A stretch of DNA of 64,000 bases from a virus (IMGVR_UViG_3300023174_000058:98188-162187); one strand, 5' to 3'; counted from the first letter of the stretch, positions 1 to 59,783 are shown. Numbers and translations: made by a program. Notes: generated from the letters alone by a model not told the origin.

Positions 1-330
1 ATCGATTATACAATTTTAGTTGATCCAAACTTCAATAAATTGGATGTATATAATTTAGTTCAAAAACAATTACAATTTGTGTTTTCTTCAAAGCCACAGA
101 TTGGAGAATCTTTTAATAAATTAGATATTTATAGAGAAATTCAAAAAATTGAAGGCGTTTTAGATATAAAAGATATAAATATACGTAATATTACAGATTC
201 TGGGTATTCACAAACCACTTTTAATATAGAAGAAAATACAACTGAAGATGGCAATGTTATTTTAATGCCACGAAATGCTATATACGAAGTAAGATTTCCT
301 ACAATTGACATAGCAGGGAAAGCTATTTAA
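1..330 (+). CDS. Baseplate wedge subunit (T4 gp6-like), C-terminal fragment, 5'-truncated by the window
   Basis: Frame is open from base 1. It ends with IGE..(I)..IEGV.D and YEVRFP.IDI.G motifs typical of gp6/baseplate-J C-termini, and its stop overlaps the next ATG (TAATG). Confidence 0.6.
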   Translation: MDYTILVDPNFNKLDVYNLVQKQLQFVFSSKPQIGESFNKLDIYREIQKIEGVLDIKDINIRNITDSGYSQTTFNIEENTTEDGNVILMPRNAIYEVRFPTIDIAGKAI

Positions 331-1739
331 TGCCAATTACAAAATATACTGCTTCGGCAGACACAACAATAGTTAATGCTTATTATCCTGATAGTTTAAA
401 TAGGGCTATATATGCAAACTTAGGAGCAGCCGACTCTTTAGAGGTATTTTCTATTTATATTTCTGGCACTGAAACACAAAAAGCAAGAACTCTTGTTCAA
501 TTCCCAATTAGTGCCATATCATCAAGTAGAGTAGCCGGTTCAATACCAAGTTCAGGTAGTGTTAATTTTTATCTAAAGTTATTTAACGTAGAGCATCCTG
601 AGACTTTACCTAAAAAATATTATGTTTCAGTAGATCCAATAACTGGTTCTTGGGATGAAGGATTCGGTTTAGATCTTGAAAACTATAGCGACAAAGGTCA
701 AAGCGGCTCTATTGGCTATGGCTCCAACTGGAAATATAGATCGACAACTAATTCACCATATGTATGGGCAAGCGAAGGCGGTGATGTTGTTTCTGGCTAT
801 AACAAAACCTTTTATTTTGATGAAGGTACCGAAGATTTAGACGTAAACATAACAGATATTGTTGAAGCTCAAATAAACGGCGTAATACCAAACAATGGCT
901 TTATGATTAAACTATCTGGTGCATATGAGGATGGTACAAACGCTACAACATATTATACAAAAAGATTCTCAGCAAGAAGCTCAGAATACTTTTATAAAGT
1001 ACCAGTCATTGAAGCACGCTGGGAATCTGTTATAAAAGATGATAGAAATAACTTTTACTATGCAACGCCAAACTTAAGTTCAACCGATAATAATCAAAGC
1101 GTATATTTTTATAATAAAGTTAATGGTATTTTAAAAGATATCCCAAGCTCAGTTGTTCCATTGGTTAATGTATATAATGAATCAGGAAATTTATTAACCG
1201 GTTCCATACAGTCGGTAAAAGTCTCAACTGGTACTTACAAAGCAACGATAAACATTACTGGGAGCTCAGAAGAATTACTACAAGATGTATGGTTTTCCGG
1301 TAGTAATGCGTATTTTACGGGTTCTATTGATGCTAAGATTAGACAATTTGATGATTCAGCGATCCAGCCAGAATATATATTTGCTGTTACCAATTTAAAA
1401 AGCGTATATAGCTCTGAAGAAAAGCCAGCGATAAGAATCTTTGGAAGACAAAGAGATTGGTCGCCTAATATATATAAAGTTGCCTCTAAAGAAATTAATA
1501 CCTTAACTTTTAATAATTTATATTATAAAATAATAAGAATAGTTGATAACTCCACAATTATTGATTATGGCATTGAGCCAATTGCTTACACCTTATGTTC
1601 TTATGATAAAAATGGTAATTATTTCGAGTTAGATATGTCAATGTTAGAACCGGGATACGCATACGGTATTAAGCTAATGTTATTAAATGGCGAGTTAAAG
1701 ACAGAATTTAAAGATATATTTAGATTTAAGGTTCAATAA
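330..1739 (+). CDS. Baseplate-associated virion protein with DNRLRE-like domain
   Basis: 469 aa with ASADTTI..N.GAADSLEV..RTLVQF..NNGFMIKL..F.AR..P.IEARW pattern; baseplate gene context. Confidence 0.5.
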   Translation: MPITKYTASADTTIVNAYYPDSLNRAIYANLGAADSLEVFSIYISGTETQKARTLVQFPISAISSSRVAGSIPSSGSVNFYLKLFNVEHPETLPKKYYVSVDPITGSWDEGFGLDLENYSDKGQSGSIGYGSNWKYRSTTNSPYVWASEGGDVVSGYNKTFYFDEGTEDLDVNITDIVEAQINGVIPNNGFMIKLSGAYEDGTNATTYYTKRFSARSSEYFYKVPVIEARWESVIKDDRNNFYYATPNLSSTDNNQSVYFYNKVNGILKDIPSSVVPLVNVYNESGNLLTGSIQSVKVSTGTYKATINITGSSEELLQDVWFSGSNAYFTGSIDAKIRQFDDSAIQPEYIFAVTNLKSVYSSEEKPAIRIFGRQRDWSPNIYKVASKEINTLTFNNLYYKIIRIVDNSTIIDYGIEPIAYTLCSYDKNGNYFELDMSMLEPGYAYGIKLMLLNGELKTEFKDIFRFKVQ

Positions 1740-57286: not shown

Positions 57287-57332
57287 ATAAGTTTTCACAC
57301 ATATAGAAATTTAGTTTTAGGAGACTATTTTA

Positions 57333-59783
57333 ATGGCTATTGAAAAGTTCCGCTTTGTATCCCCCGGCGTACAAATCAATGAAATAGACGAAAGCATCGT
57401 TACCCCAACCCAACCAGCAATTGGTCCAGTTGTTATTGGTCGCACAGCTAAAGGCCCAGCAATGCAACCAATTATTGTCAGCAATGTCAGCGAATTAGAA
57501 AGAGTTTTCGGTGGCCCTACAAATGGCGTTGTAAGTGCAGTAGATGTTTGGCGTACCGGCGCTCCAACTGCTCCAACTTTTGCAACATATGCAGCAAAAG
57601 CATTCTTACAGAATGCATCACCAGTAACAGTGGTTCGTCTTGCTGGCGTTGATCAAGGTGGTACAACCGCCACCCCCGGCTGGATTACTGATGGCGCATA
57701 TCACATTTACGCAGTAAGCGGTACAACTGCTGTATTAGCTGGTGTTGTTTATACAGATAGCGGATCTGCATTAGGTGTTTCTGGTGCTCTTGGATTTACA
57801 AGCAATGGCTCAAGCTCATATACTTCAAATCAAGGTAACCTATATTTAAGCTCATCGACTGGCGGGACAGGCAGCGCAATCCCATTCTCATTTGTTGCCT
57901 CTTCCGGCTCATTCTTAAGAAACGTATTAAATACAAATCCAACCTTACTTTCCTCAGAAGGTCACTTCTTAGGTGAATCATTTGAGAATTCATTACCAGC
58001 CGCGATTACACAAGTTTATGTTTCACAATCATCAGCTTGGAGAACTCATACAAGTGCATCAATTAGCGCAGAAAGCGGTTGGGTTACAAGTGATCACGCA
58101 AGCGGATCAGACCCAGTTAATCTATTCAAATTTGTTGGTCTTAACAGCGGAGCAAGCCTTTCAAAAGAAATTAAAATTTCAATTGAAAATGTTCGCGCTT
58201 CAAGAAACACAAATGTAACAAAATACGGTACATTTGATGTTGTTGTTCGCAAGCTTTATGAAACCGCTGGAGATTCCGCGTTAGAAAGATTTACAGGAGT
58301 TTCACTAGATCCAACATCAGATGATTTTATCGTTAGAAGAATTGGTGATTCATACCGTCAATGGGATGCAACAAACAGTCACTACGTTGAATATGGATCA
58401 TACGCAAATCGTTCAGCTTATGTTCGTGTTGAAATGAACGCGGATGCTTCAATTGAGCCAACTGCACTACCACACGGTTTCCGCATCAAAGGTGTTCCTG
58501 ATCTTGGTACCGTTGGCGGATTAACTGCCCAACATGCAGACATTGAACTACTAGAAAGCTCAGTTCGTTTATCCGCAGCTAAAACAACACGCTTTGGTCT
58601 AGTTGCTGACAAGACAGGCAACGCTGATCTCGTAGACATTCTCGGTCAAAAACCAGCTGTTGCCGTTGAAGATGATTTGCTTTTCAGCACAAGATATGTA
58701 AGCAGTTCAGCCACTGCAGTTCAATATGTTGATGGTGTATATAACTCAACTGATGTGCTAACAGCGGGAACAATTTCTGGCTTCACAATGCCAATGTATG
58801 GTGGTTTTGATGGCGCTGACATTACAGAAGCAGAACCATTCGTAAACGCATTTGTACTAAATTCAGGGGATGAAACAAGCAATGCTGCTTATCGTTCAAT
58901 CAAACAAGCAATTGATATTGTTTCAAACCCTGAAACGGTCGATATGAACCTTCTTTGCGTACCAAACTTAAAGAACGAAACACTAACAAGCTACATGATC
59001 AGCGTTTGCCGCGCCCGTGGTGATGCAATGGCGATCATCGACCTTGATGGCGATTATGAATATTCATGGGAGACAAATGACAAAAAAGAATCCCGTCCAC
59101 TAAATACATCAGCTGTTATTCAAAATCTAACAGAGCGCGCTATTGATGACAGCTACGGTGCAGCATACTTCCCATATGTATTCGTAGCAAGCGAAGGTAT
59201 CTTTATGCCATCTTCAATCGCAGCACTTGGCGCTTATGGTGGTACAGAAGGTCGCAGTGCTCTATGGTTTGCACCAGCTGGCTTCAACCGTGGCGGCTTA
59301 ACCGAAGCTAATGCCGGTATCGGCGTAAGCCGTACAGCACTACAATTAAACGCAACAGATCGTGACGATCTATACACTGTAAACATTAACCCAATTGCTA
59401 CCTTCCCAAACGAAGGCGTGCTAATCTTCGGTCAAAAGACTCTACAAGTTACACCAAGCGCGCTTGATCGAGTGAACGTTCGTAGATTACTAAACTATAT
59501 CAAGAAAGAAATTTCACGCGCCGCAACCCGCGTCCTATTTGAGCCAAACATTGAAGCAACTTGGAATAACTTCAAGGGTGTTGTTGATCCATTCCTTCTT
59601 GCTATCAAAAATGCTTATGGTCTTGAAGATGCAAAAGTTGTATTAGACAGTACAACAACAACCGCAGATCTTGTAGATCGTAACATCATGTACTGCAAAG
59701 TATTTGTCAAACCAACCAGAGCAATTGAATACATCGCAATTGATTTCGTAGTAACAAACTCTGGCGCAGCATTCACAGAATAA
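57333..59783 (+). CDS. Tail sheath protein (T4 gp18-like)
   Basis: FVSPGVQINEID.S, WFAPAGFNRG, RDDLY...INPI, FGQKTLQ..SALDRVNVRRL, KPTRAIEYI. Confidence 0.95.
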   Translation: MAIEKFRFVSPGVQINEIDESIVTPTQPAIGPVVIGRTAKGPAMQPIIVSNVSELERVFGGPTNGVVSAVDVWRTGAPTAPTFATYAAKAFLQNASPVTVVRLAGVDQGGTTATPGWITDGAYHIYAVSGTTAVLAGVVYTDSGSALGVSGALGFTSNGSSSYTSNQGNLYLSSSTGGTGSAIPFSFVASSGSFLRNVLNTNPTLLSSEGHFLGESFENSLPAAITQVYVSQSSAWRTHTSASISAESGWVTSDHASGSDPVNLFKFVGLNSGASLSKEIKISIENVRASRNTNVTKYGTFDVVVRKLYETAGDSALERFTGVSLDPTSDDFIVRRIGDSYRQWDATNSHYVEYGSYANRSAYVRVEMNADASIEPTALPHGFRIKGVPDLGTVGGLTAQHADIELLESSVRLSAAKTTRFGLVADKTGNADLVDILGQKPAVAVEDDLLFSTRYVSSSATAVQYVDGVYNSTDVLTAGTISGFTMPMYGGFDGADITEAEPFVNAFVLNSGDETSNAAYRSIKQAIDIVSNPETVDMNLLCVPNLKNETLTSYMISVCRARGDAMAIIDLDGDYEYSWETNDKKESRPLNTSAVIQNLTERAIDDSYGAAYFPYVFVASEGIFMPSSIAALGAYGGTEGRSALWFAPAGFNRGGLTEANAGIGVSRTALQLNATDRDDLYTVNINPIATFPNEGVLIFGQKTLQVTPSALDRVNVRRLLNYIKKEISRAATRVLFEPNIEATWNNFKGVVDPFLLAIKNAYGLEDAKVVLDSTTTTADLVDRNIMYCKVFVKPTRAIEYIAIDFVVTNSGAAFTE

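Follow-up and report, generated by a model that had tools for sequence, protein, structure and literature searches.

Motif-bearing proteins of the window

The final 64 kb of an IMG/VR virus record of 162 kb (IMGVR_UViG_3300023174_000058, positions 98188 to 162187) were analyzed for a short serine-containing tripeptide, [ST][GA]S, which recurs in the outward-facing virion proteins encoded there. This whole stretch of 64,000 nucleotides is called the window below, and its open reading frames (ORFs) are named by their first position in it. The large ORFs are all on the + strand, as are the window genes described here, and the window has a G+C content of 31-39%. It encodes a T4-type major capsid protein, and based on this protein the nearest cultured relatives are Flavobacterium phage immuto (47% identity), Microcystis phage Mel-JY01 (46%) and Rhodothermus phage RM378 (42%). 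No similarity to any cultured phage was found at the DNA level.

Each protein was compared with 2000 shuffles of its own sequence. Ten ORFs, namely 330, 1739, 4140, 16194, 18223, 19073, 24553, 26665, 28219 and 54610, were individually enriched in the motif at p < 0.01. The first encodes an outer baseplate protein with tandem beta-sandwich domains (330-1739; eight motifs, 1.1 expected, p = 0.0005). It is followed by an outer baseplate or fibre protein with a Laminin_G_3 domain (1739-4153; PF13385, E = 7.7e-9; 10 against 1.9, p = 0.0005) and a giant structural protein of 1499 amino acids (4140-8639; 11 against 2.7, p = 0.0005). The product of ORF 16194 (16194-17099; 4 against 0.8, p = 0.0075) is a fibre or baseplate-periphery protein which BLAST identified as a paralogue of 14858. 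ORF 18223 (18223-19104) encodes tandem repeats of about 10 residues containing PV[FY]V-[ST][SA]S, with 6 copies of the motif against 1.8 expected, or 11 when a central serine is also allowed ([ST][GAS]S; p = 0.0085). The repeat has the form x-x-P-V-[FY]-V-[ST]-[SA]-S-x and is present in about eight copies from residue 80 to 165. A small beta-rich, fibre-tip-like protein (19109-19579) has five motifs (p = 0.001), and these are the most conserved segments of its family (alignment A1, 17 homologues); its AlphaFold2 (AF2) model was poor, with a pLDDT of 51.7. Three fibre proteins are encoded at 24553-26661 (12 against 3.2, p = 0.0005), 26665-28092 (10 against 2.8, with TAS[YWL] repeats resembling the ones in immuto gp169) and 28219-29163 (9 against 1.6, p = 0.0005). 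The tenth protein is a gp13-like neck protein (54610-55884; match to gp13 in the PDB, E = 1.5e-6) with 5 motifs against 0.95 expected (p = 0.002), all of them within its N-terminal half.

The major capsid protein (51761-53596) has motifs at residues 179, 238 and 307, in a stretch which does not align with its relatives, while the tail sheath (57333-59783) has five between residues 142 and 256, in its N-terminal, non-aligning part. Neither was significant individually in the shuffles (3 against 1.6 and 5 against 2.7), nor were ORFs 14858, 29178, 30713 and 49487. When the proteins of this phage, immuto, RM378 and Mel-JY01 were pooled, both became significant: 11 against 4.8 for the capsid protein (p = 0.01) and 21 against 8.4 for the sheath (p = 2e-4). 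Individual significance is limited to the ten baseplate, fibre and neck proteins; the capsid and sheath entries of an initial annotation of the sequence hold in the pooled data only. An exception within the fibre cluster is ORF 19695 (19695-21689), a fibritin-like, serine-rich coiled-coil fibre depleted in the motif (3 against 4.5). This fibre consists of repeats of about 16 residues, SLTNRVSLEESTRASAD-like, in about 20 copies.

In the window proteins the motifs are dispersed, 10-40 residues apart, and do not form tandem arrays. An all-against-all BLAST comparison found shared segments only between 14858 and 16194 and among 19695, 26665, 28219 and 30713, so a single paralogous repeat family was rejected at the sensitivity of BLAST; most of the motif-rich proteins share no detectable homology. 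Recurrence across such proteins, as initially proposed, was borne out, and so was recurrence across different architectures, which include the tandem beta-sandwich baseplate protein, fibres, the gp13-like neck protein and the non-aligning parts of sheath and capsid. Pfam searches with 19 window proteins (E <= 0.01) gave no match of the PF06598, PF05658 or PF03406 type; the only hit was Laminin_G_3 in ORF 1739. Most of the motif-rich proteins of the fibre cluster also stayed unnamed in searches against PHROGs and Pfam.

Enrichment, direction and specificity

Over all ORFs of the window the wider form [ST][GAS]S was observed 183 times. Shuffling whole proteins gave 84.4 +/- 9.2, and shuffling confined to blocks of 30 residues gave 90.1 +/- 9.2 (z about 10). 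The core of the signal is [ST][GA]S, since TSS and SSS were only weakly raised (z of 2.3 and 3.0). T[GA]S occurred 54 times against 19.4 (z = 8.1) and S[GA]S 66 times against 27 (z = 7.7), whereas S[GA]T (26 against 19.6, z = 1.4) and T[GA]T (17 against 14.4) were near expectation. The comparison with shuffles and with reversed and permuted motifs, suggested together with the initial annotation, therefore came out in favour of the motif, and every peptide quoted there was found in the ORF to which it had been assigned. An unbiased scan of all tripeptides ranked SGS first and TGS third, with TAS among the top. TGS, SGS and TAS surpassed a first-order Markov expectation about 2-fold and their reversed forms did not. 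Local composition and low complexity were ruled out by the block shuffles and the Markov expectation. Both TCN and AGY codons encode the motif serines, in the background mix, so the signal lies at the level of protein, and a DNA motif was ruled out. With hydrophobic residues on both sides, the motif was found 32 times against 5.0 expected.

Specificity was examined in 117 motif-rich proteins, which had been chosen for their motif content, so that only the relative values among tripeptides count. TGS was raised 6.3-fold, SGS 5.3-fold, TAS 3.5-fold and SAS 3.4-fold, compared with 1.7-fold for SGT and TGT, 0.8-fold for SAT and TAT and 0.7- to 1.1-fold for [ST]G[ND]. Position 3 is strictly serine, while position 1 is serine or threonine; judged from these preferences, the specificity resembles recognition by an enzyme. 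Hydrophobic or aromatic residues flank the motif, and K, R, E and D are underrepresented around it. No enrichment was found in the window proteins for the NxS/T sequon or for [ST]GxT, S[GA]xT, GxT or DS[AD].

The motif is specific for the outside of the virion. Terminase, primase, scaffold and the 1058-amino-acid nuclease/ATPase ORF contain 0-1 copies, in agreement with the scarcity noted by eye in the initial annotation, and the portal likewise contains 0-1. The part of the genome which precedes the window had a ratio of observed to expected motifs of 0.91.

Distribution among related and unrelated phages

The ratio of observed to expected motifs was 2.86 for this genome, 2.81 for immuto, 2.92 for RM378 and 2.96 for Mel-JY01, in which (G-T-S)n-like low-complexity runs inflate both directions. 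Together with G001, a complete 187-kb relative, the three cultured phages form a motif-rich set with ratios of 2.8-3.3. The direction was also preserved in RM378, where T[GA]S was raised 3.9-fold and S[GA]T 1.3-fold. The ratio was 0.55 for the structural proteins of T4 and 1.25 for the Ser/Thr-rich proteins of cyanophage P-HM2, while symmetric ratios of 1.77 and 1.37 were obtained for the first 200 kb of XacN1 and the first 400 kb of the 484-kb phage LR756508. For all Ser/Thr-rich proteins of the motif-poor relative G013 (145 kb), including fibres with 14-16% serine, the ratio was 1.30; the motif-poor lineages are known from incomplete contigs, and that of G013 is 80% complete.

The enrichment is real, strong, directional, widespread and specific for outer virion proteins. 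In this phage and hundreds of relatives, copies on the outward-facing tail, baseplate and fibre proteins exceed expectation by a factor of three to six. As a clade trait the enrichment is shared by immuto, RM378 and 80 IMG/VR relatives, where it is 4- to 5-fold in the outer proteins, and it is not generic to phage fibres; a generic fibre property was rejected on the lack of enrichment in T4, P-HM2, LR756508 and G013. T4 DNA has a G+C content of about 35%. An effect of base composition was rejected as well, given that P-HM2 (38% G+C) and T4 are negative and that motif-rich relatives span 28-45% G+C. A trait of one host phylum was also rejected: motif-rich phages infect Flavobacterium, Rhodothermus and Microcystis.

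Among 79 distinct IMG/VR loci the homologues of ORF 330 were enriched 5.4-fold and the following 10 kb 4.0-fold, while the preceding 10 kb, encoding gp25, a gp6-like protein and inner baseplate and hub proteins, gave a ratio of 0.58. The same inner proteins gave about 1.0 in low-motif lineages. In the giant proteins downstream, 1571 motifs were counted in these 79 relatives against 394 expected. Among the fibres richest in the motif from this phage, immuto, RM378 and Mel-JY01, BLAST detected no homology. In close orthologues from locus L006 the motif class was kept at 37 of 59 sites (63%), compared with 10-50% for permuted control classes, and serine and threonine exchange freely at position 1; ORF 24553 kept the motif at 9 of its 12 sites. 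In immuto, gp168 and gp169 contain shaft arrays in which F-[ST]GS-F and [ST]AS[YF] are repeated in tandem at a spacing of 4-9 residues.

Two lineages showed peculiarities. The Ser/Thr-rich proteins of RM378 (loci L016-L022) are rich in a hydrophobic residue followed by T-x-S, where x is L, F, G, H, V, Y or I (T.S 200 against 73), and this form could represent the same phenomenon in a version particular to that lineage. In Mel-JY01 (loci L023-L032) long (G-T-S)n-like runs were found in ORFs 635-3052 and 3065-4591, directly upstream of an ORF of 1234 amino acids with a GT1 domain.

The ORF 330 family

Clustering at 50% gave 1127 representatives of the ORF 330 family. In the relatives the gene order is gp25, a gp6-like gene, the 330-homologue and then giant proteins of the Laminin_G type. 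Across 54 full-length homologues [ST][GA]S was found 373 times against 66 expected, and S[GA]T 31 times against 28. The number of copies per homologue ranged from 0 to 14. The motif occupied 74 alignment columns in at least one member, 31 of them in one member only. The motif-poor members are dispersed through the tree of the family, so that five or more transitions must have taken place, and in phages with a motif-poor 330-homologue the neighbouring giant outer proteins were at expectation too. A substitute motif was sought in the motif-poor lineages and none was found. The serine content was 10-13% in motif-rich homologues and 6-8% in motif-poor ones. Based on these alignments, the motif behaves, family-wide, as if selection acted on the number of copies and not on where they lie.

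The AF2 model of ORF 330 (pLDDT 92.7, pTM 0.88) is a chain of beta-sandwich domains, for which Foldseek returned Ig-, FN3- and CBM-like chains. At one hairpin of the family SGS alternates with SGN, NGN and DGN, of which NGN and DGN stand in motif-poor homologues.

Putative late promoters

An octamer, CTATTTAT, in most cases with an A before it, was found in the whole genome 24 times on the + strand and a single time on the - strand. In 14 cases an ORF, often a structural one, begins 6-66 nt downstream. The positions of the octamer in the window are 18198, 21763, 24524, 47269, 50561, 55901 and 60350. It is a candidate late promoter element, differing from the T4 late promoter TATAAATA. The copy at 21763, as the strand-biased form ACTATTTAT, precedes the two DUF2827 genes described below, and the same motif precedes several structural genes.

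Glycosyltransferase genes

Two tandem genes within the fibre cluster encode DUF2827 proteins, putative glycosyltransferases, at 21791-22921 (PF10933, E = 4.7e-78; the late-type ACTATTTAT lies upstream) and 22925-24067 (E = 2.4e-71). The second is a paralogue of the first, with 36% identity by BLAST, and the two match the Pfam profile over positions 1-362 of 362 with 263 and 241 bits (cut-off 25). A PDB sequence search with the window DUF2827 proteins gave no match. DUF2827 proteins have been described as cytoplasmic by prediction and glycosyltransferase-like by structure, encoded in 2-3 copies next to genes for trimeric autotransporter adhesins (bioRxiv 10.64898/2026.01.22.700529).

The initial annotation had tentatively assigned the motif to this pair, and the comparative data do not agree with that assignment. 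DUF2827 is absent from most motif-rich relatives, among them the complete genomes of immuto and G001 as well as RM378 and Mel-JY01, while motif-poor G013 carries a homologue together with the glycosyltransferases GT1a and GT1b described below. In Paraburkholderia edwinii (L053) three DUF2827 genes stand behind two adhesin genes whose products have 37% Ser+Thr, and these adhesins are depleted in the motif (11 against 21 and 13 against 21). By analogy with that arrangement, the likelier substrate of the DUF2827 pair would be the adjacent serine-rich coiled-coil fibre 19695, itself motif-poor. In two other phages DUF2827 lies among early-type or nucleotide-metabolism genes and away from fibre genes, as a pair on a 248-kb contig (L054) and as a single gene on a 43-kb contig (L055). 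About 90 metagenomic homologues with 36-88% identity were found, and these most probably sit in phages.

Glycosyltransferases were present in every relative examined. In this genome a 13-kb glycan cluster lies upstream of the window (72.4-85.5 kb, or 72400-85500, of contig G000:C1; L010:4401-17520) and encodes five glycosyltransferases supported by Pfam: two of the GT4 type (GT1a and GT1b), two GT2 and one GT2_4/GT92-like. The sugar enzymes of the cluster comprise 4,6-dehydratases, RmlC- and RmlD-like proteins and a DegT aminotransferase, corresponding to a deoxy- or amino-sugar pathway. Further genes are those for WbqC, a methyltransferase, a hexapeptide acyltransferase, a GH130-like protein, a PhyH dioxygenase and a cytidylyltransferase. 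A comparable cluster was found in immuto. The GT1a/GT1b pair is common to immuto and Mel-JY01, and GT1a alone was found in RM378 and LR756508. The pair belongs to the core genes of the clade, since GT1a/GT1b had 49-59% identity in each of the 16 related contigs tested, and it was more conserved than the baseplate protein. GT1a and GT1b matched generic GT4 models only, far below any equivalog cut-off, and the best PDB matches of GT1a were Tll1590 and the chlorovirus transferase B736L.

Comparison with known systems

Virion O-glycosylation by phage-encoded glycosyltransferases has reportedly been described in mycobacteriophages (work attributed to Freeman and colleagues, 2023), where the glycans are said to be carried by C-terminal Ser/Thr-rich extensions of capsid and tail-tube subunits. 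The present case is similar in that transferases are encoded by the phage (two DUF2827 proteins in the window, and five transferases with sugar-nucleotide enzymes upstream), that structural proteins are the presumed substrates and that glycans would coat the outside of the particle. It differs in that a dispersed three-residue motif is spread over a dozen outer proteins and that no transferase tracks it; across the relatives, the presence of GT1a, GT1b or DUF2827 did not match that of the motif.

With the bacterial DUF2827/adhesin system the phage shares tandem DUF2827 genes directly behind the gene of a Ser/Thr-rich trimeric fibre (ORF 19695, as in Paraburkholderia). The phage homologues differ in being only 25-29% identical to the bacterial ones, and the bacterial adhesins and ORF 19695 are alike poor in [ST][GA]S. 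The sequon at which Bacteroidota O-glycosylate their proteins, D-[ST]-[AILVMT], is likewise a three-residue Ser/Thr motif on surface proteins, and the nearest cultured relative infects Flavobacterium. In 15 outer proteins this sequon was not enriched (26 observed against 35.7 +/- 5.9). General O-glycosylation in Bacteroidota acts outside the cytoplasm. A further difference is that relatives carrying the present motif infect hosts of three phyla. For the accessory-Sec GtfA/GtfB type of O-GlcNAc transfer, known from serine-rich repeat adhesins, a match of GT1a and GT1b to the paired GT-B families was not found, the two proteins reaching only the generic models mentioned above.

Shaft repeats of the chlorovirus glycoprotein (PF06598) and YadA head (PF05658) types are similar insofar as gp167 and gp169 of immuto gave weak, sub-threshold matches and their F-x-G-S-F...GDGSxLTGI arrays contain the motif. 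The window proteins differ from them in having neither a family match nor GDGSxL, and in the dispersed placement of their motifs.

Possible function of the motif

Our preferred, and tentative, reading of the sequence evidence is that phi-[ST]-[GA]-S-phi (phi = hydrophobic) serves as an acceptor site for the modification of a serine. In a large clade of aquatic, distant T4-like phages the outward-facing virion proteins would carry it as a surface code common to the lineage. Selection would maintain how many copies there are and not fixed positions, and a modifying enzyme, whose involvement we infer, would recognize the motif in trans. O-glycosylation would be the leading candidate for the modification because the phages carry sugar-nucleotide and glycosyltransferase clusters. 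The reading is placed first because the coordinated gain or loss of the motif in unrelated proteins and the turnover of its positions fit reading in trans better than a need of folding: a range of 0 to 14 copies in the same fold, site turnover and the loss of the motif, several times, from whole sets of outer proteins argue against a folding requirement.

Several results weigh against an acceptor site. The comparative evidence is against the DUF2827 pair and offers no specific support for the upstream GT4 pair. All 11 long motif-rich contigs contained GT1a (50-59% identity), and so did all 5 motif-poor ones (49-55%), so that it does not explain the difference between them. When the genes of this genome were searched with tblastn (1e-5), none was present in at least three motif-rich genomes and absent from all motif-poor ones; no correlation with the motif was seen for GT1a/GT1b, DUF2827 or any other gene at the BLAST sensitivity of this comparison, and as the motif-rich genomes form one clade, co-occurrence with glycan genes is no independent evidence. 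The 13-kb glycan cluster contains no copy of the late-type promoter motif. Finally, some motif sites plainly have a structural role, as seen in the hairpin alternation of the 330 family and in the tandem shaft repeats which the motif forms in immuto gp169; of the eight motifs in the ORF 330 model, two (residues 7 and 323) are at hairpins, comprising the last strand residue and a two-residue turn, and two lie inside strands, the other four being in strand-adjacent loops.

It is quite possible that the motif is a structural habit, in which it ends a beta-strand and forms a tight turn or strand edge (threonine on the strand, then glycine or alanine, then serine leading into the next strand) in beta-sandwich and trimeric fibre modules, and has spread with these fast-evolving modules while nothing reads it in trans. 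The positions of the motifs in the high-confidence ORF 330 model and the alternation of SGS with SGN, NGN and DGN point this way, as do the immuto gp168/gp169 arrays, the PV[FY]V[ST][SA]S repeats of ORF 18223, the hydrophobic flanks and the conservation of sites in close orthologues. With no enzyme tracking the motif and some sites structural, this explanation stands close behind the acceptor site. It accounts poorly for homologues of the same fold which manage with 0-2 copies where others have 8-14, for the joint loss from non-homologous outer proteins of one genome, and for the preservation of number while positions turn over; moreover, in T4, P-HM2, LR756508 and G013 the beta-rich outer proteins lack both the enrichment and the excess of T[GA]S over S[GA]T. 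Selection on surface composition is improbable by comparison. In some lineages exposed loops would be shifted from charged and amide residues to small hydroxyl residues, for instance by nitrogen economy, resistance to Asn-Gly deamidation or a less sticky surface, and serine would accumulate beside the glycine or alanine of turns. The serine contents of the 330 family, the depletion of charged residues around the motif and the replacement of SGS by NGN and DGN in motif-poor homologues are consistent with this, but it fails on the strict serine at position 3, the roughly 4:1 asymmetry of T[GA]S to S[GA]T and the excess over dipeptide expectation, and the serine-rich fibres of G013 are not enriched. 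Use of the motif as a sequon by the DUF2827 pair (21791-24067), expressed late, is very improbable even though the pair lies within the fibre cluster behind a late-type promoter motif, its bacterial counterparts are predicted cytoplasmic glycosyltransferases adjoining trimeric adhesin genes (bioRxiv 10.64898/2026.01.22.700529), and the close relative on L006 has both pair and motif. The four motif-rich genomes without DUF2827, the unenriched G013, the DUF2827 genes of two other phages remote from fibres and the depleted Paraburkholderia adhesins all argue against it, and position and analogy would favour the motif-poor fibre 19695 as substrate.

To return to the acceptor site, a broader and somewhat less probable form of that proposal is that a large and mostly uncultured clade, comprising immuto, RM378 and hundreds of metagenomic relatives, may modify the outside of its virions at a serine sequon not known before, phi-[ST]-[GA]-S-phi, with the T-x-S variant in RM378, which would be gained and lost as a whole between lineages. 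Widespread aquatic phages would then bear sugars or other groups, attached at a defined sequon, all over the apparatus by which they recognize their hosts, with effects on adsorption, host range, particle stability and antigenicity, and modified virions could be predicted from metagenomes by a simple sequence signature. If the motif is structural instead, it remains a strong and so far undescribed signature separating the outer from the inner virion proteins of the clade, and would show that a fold can drop a dozen "conserved" turns at once. The three cultured members, immuto, RM378 and Mel-JY01, allow direct testing.

Additional observations

PDB sequence searches with ORFs 24553 and 30713 gave no matches, and tblastn searches of cultured phages with ORFs 26665 and 28219, the immuto repeat region and P0125 gave nothing useful. 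As listed (19073-19579), the ORF of the small fibre-tip-like protein shares 32 nt with the gene before it. An internal ATG at 19109 (MSISYP...) is the likelier start, based on the alignment, in which all 17 homologues begin there.

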